Program-made: the position numbers and the translations under genes | Shown here: piece by piece, positions 1 through 38,429 of the stretch | Layout: each line of letters begins with the position of its first letter | Numbering within the stretch: the stretch's first letter is position 1 | Source: a virus | DNA: 38,429 nt | Strand: one strand, 5' to 3' | Virus record (IMG/VR): IMGVR_UViG_3300022305_000519 | The notes under the pieces: model-generated | Database searches by the model: none | What the model saw: the letters and a program-made list of their open reading frames with translations, nothing else | What the model was told of the DNA's origin: nothing

Positions 1-238
1 TGCCTACCTGAGCGGTGCCAACCTGATCGGTGCTTACCTGAGCGGTGCCTACCTGCGCGGTGCTTACCTGCGCGGTGCCGACCTGAGCGGTGCTTACCTG
101 AGCGGTGCCAACCTGAGCGGTGCCAACCTGATCGGTGCTTACCTGAGCGGTGCCGACCTGCGCGGTGCCTACCTGCGCGGTGCCGACCTGAGCGGTGCTT
201 ACCTGAGCGGTGCTTACCTTGCGGGTGCCGAAAATGCA
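1..238 (+). repeat. 15-nt tandem repeat array encoding G-A-[Y/D/N]-L-[S/I/R] pentapeptides; continuation of the array at 38334-38429
   Basis: Direct reading: units ggtgc(c/t)-(t/g/a)ac-ctg-(agc/atc/cgc) repeat back to back with period 15. The array degenerates at about 224-238. Confidence 0.95.
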
Positions 239-16327: not shown

Positions 16328-16899
16328 TATGCGTCCTTCCAAGTTCTGCCGCGACGTATTCTAAGCACAGTCGATATATGTAGGCTATATTTTTCAGCGT
16401 AATACTTTGCTTTGATGTGATTATTATCTCGTATTTCTCTAGCTTGCTCTGCTGTTATTTTTGCCTTTGGGTTATTTTCTCCTACATGAATAGGAGGTTT
16501 GATAAACCTGTTTTTGTCCATCGCATCATGCGTGTTTTCTTTGGCAGTACCAAATCTAAGATGATCTGGGTTCACGCACGAAGGATTGTCGCAAGAATGC
16601 AAGATGTACATTCCATCTGGTATCTCGCCTTTATGAATTTTGTAGCTCAGACGATGGGACATTTCTTTACCATCTTTCTTGCTACCAAGTCCAATAGTCC
16701 CATAACCGTTTAAAGTCTTTGCCCCAGTCCAAATCCAACAATCTGAAGTTTTATCAACGAACTTCCAGAATCTTACTTCTACCGATGTGCGTTTCCTCGC
16801 TACCAAATCAGTAGTGCCATTGCGAAAAAGTCTCCCGTAGTGCTTTCGGCATAAACCTTTTGCAACTACGGGAGACTCGCAACCTTCGATAGAACACAT
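16327..16899 (-). CDS. HNH homing-type endonuclease
   Basis: N-terminal Zn-ribbon CSIEGCESPVVAKGLCRKHYGRL, then WIWTGAKTLNGYGTIG and HSCDNPSCVNPDHLRFGTAKENTHDA (HNH_3-type). AAGGA lies upstream of the ATG at 16899; the tracked ORF starts at 16938. Confidence 0.85.
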   Translation of the reverse strand: MCSIEGCESPVVAKGLCRKHYGRLFRNGTTDLVARKRTSVEVRFWKFVDKTSDCWIWTGAKTLNGYGTIGLGSKKDGKEMSHRLSYKIHKGEIPDGMYILHSCDNPSCVNPDHLRFGTAKENTHDAMDKNRFIKPPIHVGENNPKAKITAEQAREIRDNNHIKAKYYAEKYSLHISTVLRIRRGRTWKDA

Positions 16900-16944
16900 G
16901 GTAATCCTTGGAGTTTTTACACCCCAAGTATACCACAATTCTAT

Positions 16945-17913
16945 TTAAGTGACGCTCTGGATTTTAGCATGGGCGTCGGGATTATCACCTATCAGGGTGA
17001 ATTCCGTCAGGATTTCACCGCGAGTGGCATCACCCGTCTTAGCACGCTCCTCGAATTTGATCGGTCGCAAGAATCCGACCGACACATATTCGGGGTCAAG
17101 TGCAAGCAGTGTACCGGTTCGCATGTAGCGATTGAGCGAGATTTTATGCTCACCAAAGTCGCTGATGTACAGGTCAACACCGCCGATAACCACTGCTTGA
17201 GCGGTACGAGCGCCAGAGACTTGCACACCTGAGAACTTGGAAGCACCGCCGAATGTAGCGATCTTGCGTTTCAGTGTCGAGTTGACCATGATAAGGCTTG
17301 CATCTCCACCGTCAGTCCATGCGGCTTCCAGTGCGGAAACCAAGTCGCCTTCGGTCATTGCCGTAGCGGTGCCGTCCGTAACAGCGCCCCAGACGCCAGC
17401 AGCGTAACCGGGCGTGGTGCCGGTCGTGTTGCCAGTGCCAAGGATACGATTGCCGGAAATCATCGCTTCGATACCAGCCGAAGAACGAGCGGTGCCAGAG
17501 CCACCAGCAGACGAAACCTGATTCTGCACAAGTGCAAATTCAATGTCTCGCTTCAGTTCTTTGCCCTTCTTGGCGATCTGATATGCGAATTCAGCAGCGC
17601 GGCCATACTTGCGAACTGCATCAGCAGTGCCAGAAACCATGACGGTTTTCTTAGCGATCTGCGTGTAGTTGGAAAGCATGGTAGTGGGGGTCGCGGTAGC
17701 AAAAGTGCTATCGTCGCCTTCAATCGCCCGGTTAGCAGCAGCAGCAGCCAGCGAATCGGTCTGCCACTGGTGCAGGGTGTTCGTGACTTTCTTGCGCTTT
17801 GCCATCGATAGGAAAGGGGTTTCCTCGGGCGAGATGTTAAAGATAACGTCTTCGACGTCTTCTGCGATACCTACGAGGTCGTAGCTATCAGTGGTTCCAG
17901 TTGATTGTGCCAT
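16945..17913 (-). CDS. Major capsid protein (HK97 fold; SU10/DUF5309-like N-terminus)
   Basis: ...YDLVGIAEDVEDVIFNISPEETPFLSMAKRKKVTNTLHQWQTDSL..., 322 aa, directly downstream of a scaffold-like gene. Confidence 0.85.
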   Translation of the reverse strand: MAQSTGTTDSYDLVGIAEDVEDVIFNISPEETPFLSMAKRKKVTNTLHQWQTDSLAAAAANRAIEGDDSTFATATPTTMLSNYTQIAKKTVMVSGTADAVRKYGRAAEFAYQIAKKGKELKRDIEFALVQNQVSSAGGSGTARSSAGIEAMISGNRILGTGNTTGTTPGYAAGVWGAVTDGTATAMTEGDLVSALEAAWTDGGDASLIMVNSTLKRKIATFGGASKFSGVQVSGARTAQAVVIGGVDLYISDFGEHKISLNRYMRTGTLLALDPEYVSVGFLRPIKFEERAKTGDATRGEILTEFTLIGDNPDAHAKIQSVT

Positions 17914-27573: not shown

Positions 27574-27749
27574 GCAATTCGATATTGTTCCTTATCCTTT
27601 CCCTGCAAGAACTTCGGCAAGCGACCGCGCCCGGCCCATGTTTCACCATTCGGCCCCTTGAACTTTACTGGAAGTGTGCGGCCTTTTAGCTTGCTAGGCG
27701 CTTTCTGTTGCACTTCGGTTACTTGTACGGTTTCTTGAGTCTGTTCCAT
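27570..27749 (-). CDS. Short H-NS-family DNA-binding-domain protein (59 aa; C-terminal domain only)
   Basis: Hand translation: MEQTQETVQVTEVQQKAPSKLKGRTLPVKFKGPNGETWAGRGRLPKFLQGKDKEQYRIA. It carries the core H-NS/MvaT/Bv3F motif (..G.tW.GrGr.Pkw/fl). Below the track cutoff. Confidence 0.65.
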   Translation of the reverse strand: MEQTQETVQVTEVQQKAPSKLKGRTLPVKFKGPNGETWAGRGRLPKFLQGKDKEQYRIA

Positions 27750-27863
27750 GTCAATCCTATTGGTTTATGAACTGTTATTTTAACACTCTTCCCATGTTTT
27801 TTCCACTGTTTAAACGATCAGTGTTTTATTAGGGTTTTTACTAGTAGAAAAAACATTTTGGAT

Positions 27864-27872
27864 TGGCATAAT
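27864..27872 (+). promoter_or_regulatory. Extended -10 promoter candidate (TGgCATAAT) for the plus-strand moron operon
   Basis: tggcataat read at 27864-27872, about 35 nt upstream of the first plus-strand gene. No good -35 element. Confidence 0.35.
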
Positions 27873-27905
27873 AGAGTCATCAGCAAAGCAACTAGGAGAT
27901 AGAAA

Positions 27906-28097
27906 ATGCGAGTCATCATCAAAGACAAGGACACCGAAGCTGCTTACAAGTTTGCCGACCAATGGGCAAATACTGCTCAGGTTATGGCAGAGCAGCTTGA
28001 GGATGAAGGCACAATTCTTAGTGTTGAGGCATCTAAGAAATGGTATCGGATTATGGATGCTTTCCGCCAAGCCGCCGATGAAGTTGGCAAGGTCTAA
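27906..28097 (+). CDS. Hypothetical protein (63 aa), first gene of the plus-strand accessory operon
   Basis: A strong RBS within the motif CAACTAGGAG lies 7 nt upstream. The antisense ORF 27810-28070 lacks an RBS. Confidence 0.65.
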   Translation: MRVIIKDKDTEAAYKFADQWANTAQVMAEQLEDEGTILSVEASKKWYRIMDAFRQAADEVGKV

Positions 28098-28144
28098 AAA
28101 ATGGAAGGCTTGCTCTTCAATACTTTGATGTACTGGTGAAATAA

Positions 28145-28723
28145 ATGCAAACTACTCTCAATAAAATCCGTTCGCATGGTCCGTGTGCTAGTGGATGGAA
28201 AAAACTTCTCGCGCACCTGGGAAAGACTGAGGCAGACAACGAACCGCTGTCTATCCTCACCATTATTGAAAGCAACGGCCTTGATGACGCCTTGTGGTGC
28301 CTGCGTGCCGTAGACGGAAGCGATAAAGAGATTCGCTTGTTTGCCGTCTGGTGCGCCCGGCAAGTGCAGCACTTGATGACCGACAAGCGAAGTATTGATG
28401 CTCTTGATGTTGCCGAAAAATATGCATCAGGCATGGCTACTCGTGATGAATTGGAACGCGCGGAGTCTGCTGCGGAGTCTGCTGCGTGGTCTGCTGCGTG
28501 GTCTGCTGCGCGGTCTGCTGCGGAGTCTGCTGCGTGGTCTGCTGCGTGGTCTGCTGCGGAGTCTGCTGCGCGGTCTGCTGCGCGGTCTGCTGCGTGGTCT
28601 GCTGCGGAGTCTGCTGCGCGGTCTGCTGCGTGGTCTGCTGCGTGGTCTGCTGCGGAGTCTGCACAAAAAACAGAATTGATCCGTATTTGCAAGGAAATCG
28701 AATGCGCTTCCAACAAATCCTAG
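28145..28723 (+). CDS. Paralog A (192 aa): conserved N-terminal domain of about 105 aa plus 17 x [E/W/R]-S-A-A tandem repeats
   Basis: The N-terminus MQTTLNKIRSHGPCASGWKKLL...LWCLRAVDGSDKEIRLFAVWCARQVQHLM...ATRDELE aligns residue for residue with the product of 31234-31773. Confidence 0.8.
   Translation: MQTTLNKIRSHGPCASGWKKLLAHLGKTEADNEPLSILTIIESNGLDDALWCLRAVDGSDKEIRLFAVWCARQVQHLMTDKRSIDALDVAEKYASGMATRDELERAESAAESAAWSAAWSAARSAAESAAWSAAWSAAESAARSAARSAAWSAAESAARSAAWSAAWSAAESAQKTELIRICKEIECASNKS
28460..28663 (+). repeat. Perfect 12-nt tandem array, (gag|tgg|cgg)-tct-gct-gcg, 17 units
   Basis: Direct reading. Only the first two bases of each unit vary. There are no stops in any of the six frames. 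Confidence 0.95.
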
Positions 28724-28905
28724 ACCTTGCCCGTCACCATGCCGATAATGGTGCTGAAATGCAAACCTCTGCTGATCTGTGCATCCAAGAAGCTCTTGAA
28801 GCATGGCACGAAGGCAAATGGAACACTGCTAAACAGTGGGCTATTAAATCGCTCTCTCACTCTGTGGGAGTTCTTCATTCTGACTATATTGAGGCAAGCA
28901 AATGA
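28702..28905 (+). CDS. Hypothetical protein (67 aa)
   Basis: Internal ATG of tracked ORF 28486-28905, with AAGGA upstream. The N-terminal part of the tracked ORF is a repeat-frame artefact (VCC repeats). Confidence 0.6.
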   Translation: MRFQQILDLARHHADNGAEMQTSADLCIQEALEAWHEGKWNTAKQWAIKSLSHSVGVLHSDYIEASK

Positions 28906-29003
28906 GCTTCATCATCCTATCAGCATCTATCGGCCTGTTCTGCTACATCGCATGGCGTATCGTTGACCGTATCGCTACTGTGATAGTAGACGAACTGTTT
29001 TAA
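28902..29003 (+). CDS. Small single-TM protein (33 aa)
   Basis: ATGA overlap with the upstream stop. TM segment FIILSASIGLFCYIAWRIV. Followed by a terminator. Confidence 0.4.
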   Translation: MSFIILSASIGLFCYIAWRIVDRIATVIVDELF

Positions 29004-29020
29004 TCGCTCCTAGACGCAAT

Positions 29021-29048
29021 AAAGGCCCTTCGGGGCCTTTTTGTATTT
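29021..29048 (+). terminator. Intrinsic terminator ending the plus-strand accessory operon
   Basis: aaaggccc-ttcg-gggccttt hairpin followed by ttgtattt. It also faces the convergent TLP gene. Confidence 0.8.
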
Positions 29049-29172
29049 GTGCCGGGTGCTACGACCCATCCCGGCCTGGGCTTTCCTTTGGCTGGAGCAA
29101 TTTACAGCCTTCCATCCGTAGCTTTTGGGTTCTGTTTATTTCGCGTAATAATCTGGCAGGATATTCGCCGGT

Positions 29173-29994
29173 CTATCTTGCGTTAAACCGCTCTGCCACC
29201 AGTGGTTCAGCGCCATCAAAAATGACAGCCTCGCGGTTCGTCACAGTGCCAAGCGGCGGCATGTCAAGCGCGGCGCACACGGACCGTTCGACCACCAGCG
29301 CCGGGTTTGTGCGTGCCTCGTGCTTCGGTGGCAAACGGTCCAGTTCTTCGGTGCTGAACGGCACGCTCACGGTACGCCGCTGCACGTAGGCGCCACGCTT
29401 GAACAGCGGCGGGTAGTCGTTCCAGTTCACACCCTTAGCGTGCAGCATGTCATGCTTCTGTGGGTTGTTCTTGCCCGTCAGTGCCTTATGGCTGTAGTGC
29501 GCCGAAGCTGCCATGCTCACGCTGTTCTTAGTGGCGTCCCACTCGCGCCACAGAAACACATTCGCGCCTTCGGCCCGATTCGGCACATTCCACACGCGGG
29601 CGTCAAATGTCGGCAGGCGATTAGCATATTGCGGCATGCGTTCCAGCACCAAGCGGTAGAAGATCAACGTGGCCTGGGCTGCAAGCTGGCTTGTCATCTT
29701 CGCCACGCGGCCATCAAACCAAATCTGGCTCTGTGTCGTGCTGGCGTGCCAAGCCAGTGTGATTTCGTCGCTCTGCGTGTAGCCCATGCAGGCACCGGTG
29801 TCGCGCACCAGTGCGGCGGTCGTGCCCAGCATGCAGCCAGAAAAACCGGAATCGAATGGGCGCTCCATACCTTTTGTAAAGCTGTGGAATGCGCGGCCAT
29901 CAATCCGCGCCATGGCTGGCAGCAGCGGCATCAAGCGCCGCCCGGCTTCCATGCCCTCGTACAGTTTCATTCGGTCGCCTAAATCATCTTTCAT
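29173..29994 (-). CDS. Thg1-like protein (TLP), tRNA(His) guanylyltransferase-family 3'-5' nucleotidyltransferase
   Basis: Family blocks present: GDRMKLYE, ARIDGRAFHSFTKG..RPFD, GYTQSDEITL, FDGRVAKMTSQLAAQAT, FDARVWNVP, FLWREWDATKNS and KGVNWNDYPPLFKRG. The metal-binding Asp (DGR) and the acidic pair (SDE) are both retained. Confidence 0.9.
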   Translation of the reverse strand: MKDDLGDRMKLYEGMEAGRRLMPLLPAMARIDGRAFHSFTKGMERPFDSGFSGCMLGTTAALVRDTGACMGYTQSDEITLAWHASTTQSQIWFDGRVAKMTSQLAAQATLIFYRLVLERMPQYANRLPTFDARVWNVPNRAEGANVFLWREWDATKNSVSMAASAHYSHKALTGKNNPQKHDMLHAKGVNWNDYPPLFKRGAYVQRRTVSVPFSTEELDRLPPKHEARTNPALVVERSVCAALDMPPLGTVTNREAVIFDGAEPLVAERFNAR

Positions 29995-30215
29995 ACATTC
30001 CCTCGGAATCGGTTTAACAGGTCGCCCAAGTCCGACCGCCTACGGCGTCGGCTTGTCTCCAGCGTTAGAACTCATGACCGCGCCATTTCCAAGAGCGCAT
30101 TGCTTCCGATCAATGCCGCGTACTTATCGTTCAAATTGGTTGATGGTGTGCCAGTGCTGTTATCTCTGGCTTGCTTTAAGCGGCAACTTTGTTAGGCAAT
30201 AATTTGGCTAACTAC

Positions 30216-30221
30216 ATTATC
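30216..30221 (-). promoter_or_regulatory. -10-like element GATAAT inside the repeated motif ATAATGTAGTT (proximal copy, about 220 nt upstream of the TLP ATG)
   Basis: Plus strand attatc at 30216-30221. It shares the 11-mer aactacattat with the copy at 30489-30499. No convincing -35 element. Confidence 0.3.
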
Positions 30222-30324
30222 CGCAGGTCAGCATCCTGCATTACACCATCAAGATAGCGCACATAGCCGTTCTTCCAGTTACATTAACCGCCCGCTAGTG
30301 CGGTCACTATATGCGCTAACTTCA

Positions 30325-30493
30325 TGGCGTTTAGGATTGGCGGACAGTCGCTACTATGGCTAAACCTTATTCGGCATTCGGTTTACAGCTACACCGGAAG
30401 GGACGAACCCAGCGCCGGGCCTTATTAGCTGTGCGTGTCTCCGTTGCAACCGCTTGGGCAGTTACTCTCCACGCCGCGCCAATCCTAAACTAC
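30325..30493 (-). ncRNA. Candidate structured RNA (about 165 nt) closed by a perfect 14-bp terminal helix
   Basis: gtttaggattggcg (30329-30342) is the exact reverse complement of cgccaatcctaaac (30477-30490). Internal hairpins include ACAGCTA/TAGCTGT and TAAACC/GGTTTA. The region has no ORF. A TATAAT lies immediately 5' on the minus strand. Confidence 0.35.
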
Positions 30494-30499
30494 ATTATA
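30494..30499 (-). promoter_or_regulatory. Perfect -10 hexamer TATAAT (distal copy of the ATAATGTAGTT motif)
   Basis: Plus strand attata at 30494-30499. The helix arm starts 4 nt downstream on the minus strand. The -35 is weak (TTCTTA at 17-nt spacing). Confidence 0.35.
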
Positions 30500-30715
30500 T
30501 GCTTTGTGGTGACAATTAAGAAAGATCATTACCCCCGTGCCAAGAAGTAATTCGCAGATTGGCACATCCACTGCAAATACTTATGCATCTGTCTCAATAG
30601 TCACCACAAAACACACTCTCCTAAAAAGAACCCCATCAACGTACACACATATCCGGGGCCTAAACACTGTCCACATCATTGCCAACTAGGAGAAGAGTTG
30701 GCCAGTGGATAGCGG

Positions 30716-31036
30716 CTAACTTGTTGCTCGATCTTGCCTGCGGTTGCTTGCTTCCTGGCTTCTCCACACTTCGATTCGTAGCTCTGCCGCTGTCATCTGC
30801 CACTTCATCGTTTCCTCTGCCTCTACAGCAGCCCTAAGCCCCTCTAGTAGCTCTCGGTACTCTGGATGCGCGTAGGCATACGCTTCTTTGGCTGCAATCG
30901 TTCCTTCTGTCTCGTTCATCAGCAGGCTTTTCTTGCTTCTCAGGAAGTTCTCGATGTACACGCGGTTAGCCTTGGCCTGTGCAAACTTTGGCGCGTTTTC
31001 TATTAGGAAGTTGACTGCTTTGTTAGGGTCAGTCAT
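30716..31036 (-). CDS. Hypothetical helical protein (106 aa)
   Basis: Clean ORF, coupled to the upstream 70-aa gene (8-nt overlap). Confidence 0.7.
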   Translation of the reverse strand: MTDPNKAVNFLIENAPKFAQAKANRVYIENFLRSKKSLLMNETEGTIAAKEAYAYAHPEYRELLEGLRAAVEAEETMKWQMTAAELRIEVWRSQEASNRRQDRATS

Positions 31037-31241
31037 TTTTCATTGCTGCGTCAAATTCAATCGCAGATTTTGCAATTTGCGTCATTTGGATATCAGATAA
31101 GCGATTACTAAAAATCTTAGTAGACCCACCCTTATAAATTGCCATCAACGCGCCAAGTGCAGAATTTCTTTGCTGTTGCAGTTCCTCCACCATGCGCTTT
31201 AGGCTGTCCAGGGCTTCGGCTTCGACTTCGATCTTAGGCAT
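31029..31241 (-). CDS. Hypothetical protein (70 aa, MPKIEVEAEALDSLKRMVEEL...)
   Basis: Internal ATG of tracked ORF 31029-31490, with AGGAGG 6 nt upstream. The PT-rich N-terminus of the tracked ORF is a repeat-frame artefact. Confidence 0.65.
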   Translation of the reverse strand: MPKIEVEAEALDSLKRMVEELQQQRNSALGALMAIYKGGSTKIFSNRLSDIQMTQIAKSAIEFDAAMKND

Positions 31242-31773
31242 TGTCAGCCTCCTGGCAGATTTCACGCAGGCGCTTTTCTTGGGAGTAGTAGGCGGCGTAG
31301 GCGTCGGCGGCGTAGGCGTCGGCGTAGGCGTAGGCGTAGGCGTAGGAGGAGGCGTAGGCGGCGGCGTCGGCGGCGTAGGCGTCGGCGTCGGCGTAGGCGG
31401 CGTCGGCGGCGTAGGCGGCGGCTGAGTCGGCGTAGGCGGCGTAGGCGGCGGATCGTGCCGACTCCAATTCATCCCGCGTTGCCATTCCATTCGCGTATCG
31501 CTCCGCTACATCCAGCGCACGAATACTACGTTCGTCTTTCATCAGGTGCTGTACTTGTCGGGCGCACCACACAGCATAAAGCCGGATTTCCTTGTCGTGT
31601 CCGTCCACAGCACGCAGGCACCAAATAGCATCGCGCAAGCCGTTGCTGTCAATGATGGTAGCGATGCTGATTTCTTCGTCATCTGCCTCAGTCTTTCCAA
31701 GGTTACGCAGTAACTTTGCCCATCCAGAATTGCATGGGCCTTTGGCTCGGATTTTGTTGAGGGTGGTTTTCAT
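31234..31773 (-). CDS. Paralog B (179 aa): same N-terminal domain as 28145-28723 plus an Ala/Tyr/Asp dipeptide-repeat C-terminus
   Basis: MKTTLNKIRAKGPCNSGWAKLL...IWCLRAVDGHDKEIRLYAVWCARQVQHLM...ATRDELE. The RBS lies within CAACTAGGAG. Confidence 0.8.
   Translation of the reverse strand: MKTTLNKIRAKGPCNSGWAKLLRNLGKTEADDEEISIATIIDSNGLRDAIWCLRAVDGHDKEIRLYAVWCARQVQHLMKDERSIRALDVAERYANGMATRDELESARSAAYAAYADSAAAYAADAAYADADAYAADAAAYASSYAYAYAYADAYAADAYAAYYSQEKRLREICQEADNA
31285..31450 (-). repeat. 6-nt-period tandem array (plus-strand gcgtag/gcgtcg/gcggcg units; minus strand GCC-TAC / GCC-GAC / GCC-GCC)
   Basis: Direct reading. The region is open in several frames, which produces the PT-rich and GV-rich shadow ORFs. 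Confidence 0.9.
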
Positions 31774-31802
31774 TTCTCTCTCCTAGTTGTTGCTGATGAT
31801 TC

Positions 31803-31830
31803 AGTTTATCCCCTGCCCAGCATCTTGCAA
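31803..31830 (-). promoter_or_regulatory. Sigma70-like promoter candidate for the paralog B operon (TTGCAA-16 nt-TAAACT)
   Basis: Read on the minus strand: TTGCAA at 31830-31825 and TAAACT at 31808-31803. It overlaps an 8-bp inverted repeat, gtttatcc/ggataaac. Confidence 0.4.
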
Positions 31831-31855
31831 TCAGGATAAACCCTACTGTCTTTAA

Positions 31856-32311
31856 TCACAGCTCCACAACCTCCGGCGCTTTGCTTCTCACTCTGTTTGC
31901 TGTGTTCTGGATGTGTCTTTCGTACTCGCTTAGGCTCACGCTCTTTCTCTGCAAGTGGTGGTACTCGTAGAGGTCGCGCACGGCCTGCAATCCTTCTCCT
32001 GTCAGTCCCATACGTCCTGTCGTCTGAAAACGCTTTGCAGCGGCTTCTAGATGCTCCTGGACACGTTCGCAGCAGTCTATAACCTCTACACCTACTCCTA
32101 ATCGGCTCATTTCCTCTGCAATGTTCATCATGGATGCGATGTGTTGCCAGTCTTGCAGTGTTGCTTTGCCAGTCCTGAATGATTCGATGCTCGACAGTTC
32201 TAGCATACACAGCTTGTCTAGCTTTGATCCGCTTACGATTGCTGCCCCTTCAATAGCGTGCAGGATAGGGTTGATTAGCTGATAGTGCTTGCGCTTTGTC
32301 TGCTTACGCAT
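31856..32311 (-). CDS. Conserved-looking hypothetical phage protein (151 aa)
   Basis: Clean ORF in the nin-like region. No family that I can name with confidence. Confidence 0.7.
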   Translation of the reverse strand: MRKQTKRKHYQLINPILHAIEGAAIVSGSKLDKLCMLELSSIESFRTGKATLQDWQHIASMMNIAEEMSRLGVGVEVIDCCERVQEHLEAAAKRFQTTGRMGLTGEGLQAVRDLYEYHHLQRKSVSLSEYERHIQNTANRVRSKAPEVVEL

Positions 32312-38216: not shown

Positions 38217-38429
38217 ATGAAACAGAAAATCTTCCATCGTTCCAATAGCGCAGTTATCTTTGAATGTGAAGTGCCTGACGAGAATAGCGGAATGGCAATG
38301 CGCTATGCGCTTGAGAAAGCTACGCAAAGCGGTGCCGACCTGATCGGTGCCGACCTGATCGGTGCCGACCTGATCGGTGCCTACCTGAGCGGTGCCAACC
38401 TGATCGGTGCTTACCTGAGCGGTGCCTAC
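38217..38429 (+). CDS. Pentapeptide-repeat protein, N-terminal part (3'-partial in this window; continues at nt 2/53-559)
   Basis: ATG at 38217 with an AGGAG RBS. Translation [71 protein letters not shown]. The frame runs off the end of the window. Confidence 0.85.
38334..38429 (+). repeat. 15-nt tandem repeat array (start of the pentapeptide array)
   Basis: ggtgccgacctgatc x3, then variant units. The last 52 nt are identical to nt 1-52. Confidence 0.95.

Follow-up and report, generated by a model that had tools for sequence, protein, structure and literature searches.

A 721-nt gene-free gap in a phage genome as a candidate modular noncoding RNA locus beside a Thg1-like protein gene

What occupies a gap of 721 nt in which a phage genome encodes no recognizable protein? 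The question is raised by positions 29995-30715 of IMG/VR virus record IMGVR_UViG_3300022305_000519, a near-complete phage genome of 38.4 kb (38,429 nt, traced to JGI metagenome 3300022468; this whole stretch is referred to as the window), in which the genes lie predominantly on the minus strand. Directly downstream of it lies a gene for a Thg1-like protein (TLP), and an earlier account made from the letters alone (the sequence-only reading) proposed that a structured RNA from the gap and the TLP form a unit resembling a retron. Here, the gap is interpreted as a conserved, modular noncoding RNA locus on the minus strand, to which we assign a probability of about 0.55; the RNA modules probably form a new, undescribed family, with processed or regulatory products. 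The earlier account was thus borne out as regards a non-coding, structured RNA on the operon strand, but not as regards a retron-like partnership with the TLP.

The 721-nt locus is non-coding. Its longest open reading frame (ORF) is 64 aa on the plus strand, and each of the three minus-strand frames contains 16-18 stops, with all three stop kinds present. In public gene calls on identical contigs the 721 nt are likewise empty and form the largest gap within the 19 kb listed. The small ORFs of the gap had no family match in Pfam or PHROG, and no protein-level similarity was found in any frame. Stop counts, public gene calls and family searches thus agree with the sequence-only reading that the operon strand carries no credible ORF here. 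Stop-codon recoding was rejected because all three stop types are frequent in the minus-strand frames, and a decayed gene or a set of small ORFs was rejected on the failure of the Pfam and PHROG searches to return matches. Identical copies of the gap region are present in two independent ENA assemblies, and the region is therefore not an assembly artefact.

The gap is rich in inverted repeats. The whole window contains seven inverted pairs of at least 16 nt spaced within 250 nt, two of which fall in the gap (1.9% of the sequence). The complements reported earlier were all recovered: the 14-bp one as 30324-30342 / 30477-30495 (19 nt at 89%, with a 14-nt exact core), the 11-bp one within 30500-30526 / 30587-30613 (27 nt at 85%), the 8-nt one at 30566-30573 / 30703-30710, and two local 7-bp hairpins, both of which occur in predicted folds. 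An additional pair, 30243-30266 / 30307-30330 (24 nt at 83%), had been missed. The features of the gap are listed below in the 5' to 3' order of the minus strand, followed by its two flanking genes, with fold z-scores obtained by comparison with dinucleotide shuffles.

30665..30714, minus strand: module A, a hairpin immediately following the 106-aa gene's stop codon (z = -3.4)
30623..30660, minus strand: terminator-like hairpin GGCCCC...GGGGUU followed by CUUUUU, as read from the sequence
30498..30616, minus strand: domain B, a 119-nt stem-enclosed cassette (z = -6.85 versus -4.75 on the plus strand; G·U pairs 7 versus 1)
30323..30495, minus strand: domain C, a multibranch cassette closed by a 14-bp perfect helix (19 positions and 17 pairs with its extension), despite which its z is marginal (-2.33 versus -1.37 on the plus strand)
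30243..30330, minus strand: domain D, a hairpin with a stem of 25 positions and 23 pairs (z = -6.93 versus -3.43 on the plus strand; G·U pairs 4 versus 0)
30139..30252, minus strand: domain E, a cassette (z = -3.78)
29995..30138, minus strand: a spacer found in this phage only, with the ribosome-binding site (RBS) of the TLP gene, GAGGGA, at its end
30716..31036, minus strand: the 106-aa gene, upstream neighbour of the gap, whose homologs were the route to the RNA homologs
29173..29994, minus strand: the TLP gene, confirmed as genuine (Pfam Thg1, E = 1.6e-25), a neighbour but not a conserved partner of the RNA modules

Folding of the minus strand, a check proposed with the sequence-only reading, gave z = -5.85 for the whole gap (-3.16 on the plus strand) and values near -7 for domains B and D, and the difference between the strands arises because of G·U pairs. 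A scan of the window at a fixed length of 150 nt did not single out the gap, because its windows cut the long helices.

Homologs were sought among fetched phage and metagenome contig stretches, labelled L and a number. A single-sequence covariance model of domain D matched L082 (33 bits), the closest IMG/VR relative of the 106-aa gene, which has two abutting hairpins with the same foot, 5'-GCCAUGAAGU...UCUU(G/U)AUGG-3', and with different upper stems and interiors. A broad scan of IMG/VR for the foot pattern gave about 80 candidates, among which only L082 and a new contig, L245, extend into a 10-bp upper stem, the others pairing at 6 or fewer consecutive positions beyond the foot, as chance predicts; neither a stricter foot pattern with other gap ranges nor a 22-mer from the D/E junction had a match in IMG/VR. 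Protein searches with the 106-aa gene, combined with contig look-ups, led to L430, a 40-kb phage with a 688-nt gene-free gap before an H-NS-like gene (93% identity to the window gap over 43 nt and 69% over 249 nt), and to L437, which has a C-D-E arrangement. The D-type members are thus L082/L434 (two copies), L245, L430 and L437. Two D-type hairpins are found in L082, L434 and L435, in L082/L435 directly after a promoter-like box and just upstream of an H-NS-like gene, while the single one of L245 follows an RNase H-like ORF (read from the translation, not from a family search). In L245 (3013-3130 and 3451-3864), that ORF is preceded by a 115-nt long-stem hairpin ending in a U-run, so that this contig is another instance of an accessory nucleic-acid enzyme beside long-stem RNA modules.

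In these relatives, conserved or covarying basal helices enclose interiors that have been swapped. The D foot, 5'-GCCAUGAAGU / UCUUGAUGG-3', is conserved together with its two 1x1 mismatches (GxG and UxU), and the 13-bp upper stem and the interior are variable. In a four-sequence alignment of the D stem, which leaves out L430 and L437, 11/20 pairs change on both sides, and 96% of the cells are paired, versus 32-47% in slid controls; a null scan for D-type hairpins in reversed sequences gave 0 matches. Of the pairs in the basal helices across the homologs, 210 are Watson-Crick and 19 are G·U, with not a single A·C (binomial p = 3.8e-6). The contrast between G·U and A·C identifies the sense strand as the folded strand, although some of the G·U pairs are inherited by descent and the independent count is therefore below 19. 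The earlier claim of a structured RNA on the operon strand thus stands on the strand asymmetry of folding, on this pair count and on compensatory changes in homologs.

A decayed gene, or a neutral recombination scar with chance hairpins, would fit the mosaic nature of this phage and the absence of a homolog in the ~2 Mb of related loci searched first. Against it are the stems that stay conserved or covary across phages while their interiors change, the z-scores near -7 and the absence of protein-level similarity in all frames, and we regard this explanation as scarcely credible.

Conserved feet, variable centres and patchy presence would also be accounted for by DNA-level elements, that is, MITE-like (miniature inverted-repeat transposable element) or attC-like sites folded as single-stranded DNA. 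The centre between the conserved feet is 58-127 nt long, L245 has a D-type hairpin but no protein similarity to the window, and the hairpins of L434 are absent from the otherwise similar L083. The latter two have in common the CU-loop hairpin, terminator, promoter-like region and tRNA-Arg region, but L083 is missing the intervening ~740 nt, which in L434 hold the two D-type hairpins; some related phages thus have the cassettes and others do not. As in attC sites and MITEs, the palindromes are imperfect, their base being conserved and their centre differing in both sequence and length, and they are patchy among relatives and stand beside accessory genes. attC sites are characterized by RYYYAAC ... 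GTTRRRY boxes together with an IntI integrase. The ends of helix C, GTTTAGG...CCTAAAC, have a polarity opposite to these boxes, and no integrase or transposase was seen among the annotated genes, the annotation being incomplete and not every ORF scanned. The G·U asymmetry (19 versus 0 A·C) points to one transcribed strand and so to RNA, every copy is sense to its flanking genes, and neither target-site duplications at the hairpin flanks nor the multi-copy spread of MITEs were found: the window holds one D-type copy only, 3.7 Mb of loci gave no copy beyond those of five phage lineages, and 185,579 species genomes searched for the class with a 55-85 nt gap gave 25 matches, all due to chance. A stem model (R3), which misses interiors above ~60 nt, likewise gave no extra members. 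A DNA-level origin is thus very unlikely.

The exchange of interiors is exemplified by domain B. Its basal stem, GUGUGUUUUGU GGUGAC / GUCACC ACAAAGCAUAU, has 17 pairs including 3 G·U, with 7 more pairs past a 1x1 loop, and in the window it encloses a three-way hairpin unique to this phage. L430 retains the basal stem and its flanks (UUUUUAGGAG and AUAAUGUAGU), but has as interior a tRNA-like element (Rfam tRNA 42.7 bits, versus a gathering score of 29) with an acceptor stem, a D-arm and a canonical T-arm (GGUUCGAAUCC), a 4-nt loop replacing the anticodon loop. A single-sequence covariance model of domain B had no match. A second contig extends the observation of tRNA-like elements: those of L430 (5631-5739) and L444 (~2024-2178) both have a canonical T-arm and an acceptor stem with a greatly expanded or altered anticodon region; the L444 element lies below the Rfam tRNA threshold, and ARAGORN calls neither of them. 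A tRNA-Arg is found near the L082/L434 hairpins.

Acceptor, D-arm and T-arm of the L430 cargo recall tRNA-like mimics and the products of phage tRNA islands (e.g. YrlA Y RNAs and the stable RNAs of the phage T4 tRNA region), and the TLP genes of other phages often lie in tRNA islands. By contrast with such mimics, the window itself gives no tRNA-like match, the L430 acceptor helix is extended by leader-trailer pairing rather than closed, and, compared with YrlA, a Ro/Rsr gene was not seen.

Domains B to E could also constitute one large, 'ornate' RNA of ~480-530 nt similar to ROOL or GOLLD, possibly closed by 30630-30640 / 30139-30149 and with the tRNA-like element embedded in some relatives. 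ROOL and GOLLD, RNAs of phages and prophages, typically have tRNA islands close by, and the linker of GOLLD sometimes contains tRNAs (PMC12286853). The present locus is similarly phage-encoded, several hundred nt long, multi-helical and close to tRNA features, with the nested tRNA-like element in L430 and the tRNA-Arg near the L082/L434 copy, and the long-range helix is contained in the fold of the whole region. On the other hand, that helix lacks compensatory support, L430 having its mismatch at a different position (paired by hand), and no covariance model of this kind matches the locus even at E <= 10. Modules that occur singly (L245) or recombined (L082), with unconserved interiors, argue for independent, separable units, and nothing here indicates one global fold or oligomers. 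A single large particle is therefore considered unlikely.

Searches for known families were otherwise negative. At the gathering score, Rfam covariance models gave 0 matches in the whole window (including GOLLD, ROOL, tRNA, tmRNA, group I/II introns, ribozymes and riboswitches), so that the Rfam scan of the gap recommended earlier, once run, found no known family; at E <= 10, the gap had only three sub-threshold matches to plant microRNA-precursor hairpins, noise of the kind that long hairpins produce in general. No tRNA or tmRNA was called in the window by ARAGORN. BLASTN of the gap gave no significant match among INPHARED phages and PLSDB plasmids, and BLASTN and TBLASTX gave no homolog among 161 IMG/VR loci and, later, 80 metagenome TLP loci.

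In domain C, the closing helix is kept in L430, where a C-G pair is added and one G-C pair is replaced by U·G, around an interior of ~50 nt versus 134 nt in the window, and in L437 it comprises 18 positions of entirely different sequence. The first inner hairpin, GCGUGGA..ACACGC, is common to all three phages. Domain E is closed by the pairing of UUGAUGGUGU, the 3' arm of D, with ACACCAUCAA ~100 nt downstream (a 10-bp exact complement). With the window and L430 as input, RNAalifold favours this helix and lengthens it to ~20 bp, between two blocks of 100% identity, and the helix covaries by subtype, GGUGU/ACACC versus GGCAAG/CUUGCC in L437 and L082, with three compensatory pairs. Since the 3' arm of D is used in both helices, the D lower stem cannot form together with the E basal helix.

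Such exclusive pairings are what is expected of a cis-regulatory leader or attenuator, in which alternative structures (the D lower stem versus the E basal helix, and the C extension versus the D 5' arm) control transcription or translation of the downstream gene, H-NS-like or late in the relatives and TLP here. The two covarying partners of the D 3' arm are consistent with this explanation, as are the terminator-like hairpin ahead of the cassettes, the promoter-like box right before the first hairpin in L082/L434, and the anti-segment CUUGCC of L082, for which GGCAAG, where the H-NS-like gene begins, is a further possible pairing partner as read from the sequence. In the window, however, the anti-segment and the TLP start are 145 nt apart, neither D nor E is followed by a U-run, and minimum-free-energy folds leave D closed, while the tRNA-like cargo of L430 and the swapped interiors are unexpected for a simple attenuator. 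A leader function is possible, but we are doubtful of it.

The promoter-like box of L082 belongs to a partly conserved region that stands before different genes: window 27826-27905 (plus strand) and 31774-31853 (minus strand), L082 6980-7016 (directly before the hairpin cassettes), L437 1100-1166, L444 2183-2240 and L430 5240-5300. In L082, L437 and L444 it has an imperfect palindrome, TAGGGTAAACACCTA, ~35 nt upstream of a GATAAT-type (or AATAAT) hexamer, and the copies in the window and L430 retain the hexamer and just one half of the palindrome, TAGGGTTT. The region has the appearance of a promoter controlled by an activator or repressor.

Ahead of the cassettes, module A forms a hairpin with an outer stem UCCAC/GUGGA, an inner stem GCCAACU/AGUUGGC and a CU-rich loop, CUUCUCCU, that resembles an anti-Shine-Dalgarno sequence. 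Hairpins of this type with a CCUCCU loop are also present in L430, L434, L437 and L444, and their stem pairs covary. Loop and 3' stem together are the exact antisense of the RBS motif CAACTAGGAGA, an 11-mer with three exact copies in the window, at 30683-30693 (plus strand), 27889-27899 (plus strand) and 31779-31789 (minus strand), and with 4 matches versus 0.4 expected when one mismatch is permitted. Two of the copies are the RBSs of a 179-aa gene and of a 63-aa gene preceding a 192-aa paralog. The third, at 30683-30693, was taken at first sight for a plus-strand RBS, a candidate that was dropped in favour of its being the antisense of the module A loop, so that the hairpin could pair with the other two start regions. 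A duplex scan for module A as a trans-acting anti-RBS small RNA is weak on this point, ranking the RBS of the 63-aa gene about fifth and that of the 179-aa gene outside the top 14.

The terminator-like hairpin that follows is weak in the window (4 GC and 2 GU pairs with a 20-nt loop), and the terminator scan makes no call there. An aligned G+C-rich stem with a U-run is found in the window, L430, L434, L444 and L437, the stems being strong in the last three, and the conserved sequence UUUUUAGGAG comes after it.

Does the RNA locus belong with the TLP? Sequence comparison indicates that it is independent of it. The relatives of the TLP comprised 79 IMG/VR and 80 metagenome loci (118 non-identical loci counted), none of which carries the RNA sequence of the gap. 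Their upstream gap to the nearest ORF has a median of ~20 nt, and nucleotide homology to the closest relatives (89-91% aa identity) begins and breaks off at the ends of the TLP gene, window 29993..29180, the spacer having no similarity to upstream regions of TLP relatives. The collection of homologous TLP-upstream regions, recommended as a means of finding conserved helices, thus showed that homology ends at the TLP gene and that the RNA region is not carried over. Conversely, no TLP was seen in the fetched stretches of the RNA homologs (L430, L437, L082/L434 and L245). Alignment of L430 with the window covers the 70-aa and 106-aa genes, the RNA region (30507..30139), the H-NS-like gene (27740..27606) and the gene after it; homology stops at 30139, before the spacer, and the distance from the RNA to the H-NS-like gene is ~160 nt in L430 versus 2.4 kb in the window (30138..27750). 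Relative to L430, this 2.4-kb insertion contains the spacer, the TLP gene, a terminator and an inverted four-gene block, suggesting that the TLP is a later neighbour of the RNA and not its partner.

The sole comparable gap upstream of a TLP gene, 667 nt in L017/L018/L227, is filled by four ordinary tRNA genes, and in L017 the TLP gene starts ~40 nt past the last gene of the tRNA cluster. Genes for tRNAs occur within 6 kb in 18/60 phage TLP loci, often as whole islands (several with 9-26 tRNAs). The natural company of phage TLPs would thus be tRNAs rather than a dedicated noncoding RNA, and no paper linking phage TLPs to such an RNA was found in the literature.

These observations speak against the proposal of a retron-like unit of RNA and TLP: 118 TLP loci lack the RNA, the fetched stretches with RNA homologs show no TLP, and the TLP of the window lies in an insertion relative to L430. 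The locus does resemble a retron msr-msd in having a structured RNA bounded by inverted repeats beside a same-strand gene of polymerase type. It differs in that the neighbour is of the Pfam Thg1 family and not a reverse transcriptase (the other flanking ORFs having no reverse transcriptase family match), that the association of RNA and polymerase is conserved in neither direction, and that its supposed promoter is a TATAAT with no -35 and no promoter call. In the mechanism proposed with it, a transcript starting from the TATAAT would have its recessed 5' end in helix C and be extended 3'-5' by the TLP on the opposite strand as template. In its favour, a TATAAT does precede the 14-bp helix by 4 nt, the TLP gene is an immediate neighbour with the same orientation, and phage TLP genes often lie among structured RNA genes (the tRNAs of the 18/60 loci). 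However, no -35 accompanies the motif, and no promoter site is called in 28900-31900. It sits in a 19-nt block identical in L430, where the -35 is also absent; L437 has GATAAG; and all but one of its bases belong to the predicted basal helices of B or C (with the C extension), which explain them. As the RNA is also present in four further phage lineages, whose fetched stretches show no TLP, the mechanism is highly improbable.

In the interpretation as a modular noncoding RNA locus, the CU-loop hairpin and the terminator-like hairpin would close the upstream operon, followed by four cassettes, B to E, each shut by a basal helix that spans 17-25 positions and includes a few 1x1 mismatches or G·U pairs. 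Their interiors would be exchanged, shortened or replaced, that of B in L430 being a putative tRNA-like mimic. The locus would belong at the junction of the early-right operon and the late genes, with the H-NS-like gene directly after it in L430 and L082/L435, and in the present phage a TLP moron and the inverted four-gene block would have been inserted just downstream of the RNA. The locus may be transcribed as part of the operon, or by polymerase that reads through the weak terminator; the basal helices may act as folding or processing units that release or present small, stable structured RNAs; and the exclusive D/E pairings may serve as a switch for the downstream sequence.

Processing stems for RNase III flank rRNA precursors and occur in phage T7 early mRNAs (sites R1-R5), with helices of ~20 bp or more and small internal loops. 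Similarly, sequences flanking the structured RNA pair here, in what would be an intercistronic position of a polycistronic phage transcript. In length, and only length is compared, the basal helices of B to E match RNase III substrates (~20-22 bp, mostly Watson-Crick). A difference is that the sequence of the D foot is conserved over ~10 nt on each strand, for which RNase III sites normally have no need. A more far-reaching proposal, which we consider speculative and decidedly improbable, is that the basal helices form an exchangeable platform of RNA cassettes that shows or releases small RNAs, e.g. tRNA-like decoys or spare parts against tRNA-targeting host defences, and that the TLP was recruited for 5'-end maturation or repair, either of those RNAs or of tRNAs of the host.

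Several points weigh against the interpretation favoured here. Domain C alone barely beats shuffles (z = -2.33), the L082 region as a whole fails to do so (z = -0.95), and any module is present in only five independent phage lineages. Two members of the D family were ascertained with structure-aware filters, which biases the covariation counts, and domain B has a single homolog and thus thin statistics. The terminator-like hairpin directly before B leaves no room for a promoter, so that B-E would need read-through. Transcription, RNA ends and processing are all putative, and it is by helix length only that RNase III cleavage is suggested. In addition, the cargo RNAs of this window match no recognizable family.

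The surroundings of the locus in the window, again on the minus strand, are as follows.

5' of the gap: early and replication genes (DUF1376/primosomal, NinG), then the 179-aa, 70-aa and 106-aa genes
3' of the gap: TLP gene, terminator, a four-gene block on the opposite strand, H-NS-like gene, terminase, portal and late genes
29021-29040, plus strand by the terminator scan: hairpin terminator, read here as bidirectional

The RNA/TLP block is flanked by paralogous genes of phrog_18326 in inverted orientation, 31234-31773 (minus strand) and 28145-28723 (plus strand), which are 80% identical over the first 103 aa and each have a tandem repeat of their own, of 6 or 12 nt, in the C-terminal half. 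A 5' leader, TCATCAGCAA..CAACTAGGAGAnAGAAA-ATG, is common to the 179-aa paralog and the 63-aa ORF (27906-28097) just upstream of the 192-aa paralog. Tandem repeats of 15 nt are found at both ends of the window (1-219 and 38330-38426), and a pentapeptide-repeat gene lies at the equivalent end of L434; the end repeats are probably one repeat-containing gene split by the contig break, and thus suggest that the genome is complete and circularly permuted. Nowhere in the window is structure stronger than at 16790-17030 on the minus strand (minimum free energy -97 kcal/mol, z = -8.15), where two late ORFs meet. A long hairpin with perfect pairing, GAGUCUCCCGUAGU...ACUACGGGAGACUUUUU, stands there ahead of a U-run, and the arrangement resembles a terminator or attenuator in the late operon.

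The result removes the attractive but unsupported idea of a 'retron with a reverse polymerase', and the tRNA genes around TLP loci point to tRNAs as the likely substrates of phage TLPs. The locus adds an undescribed and unusually modular case to the puzzle of phage structured RNAs near tRNA islands. If its cargo RNAs are processed and stable, it would provide a tractable system for the roles of small phage RNAs late in infection, and would permit testing whether such loci attract RNA-repair genes like that of the TLP.

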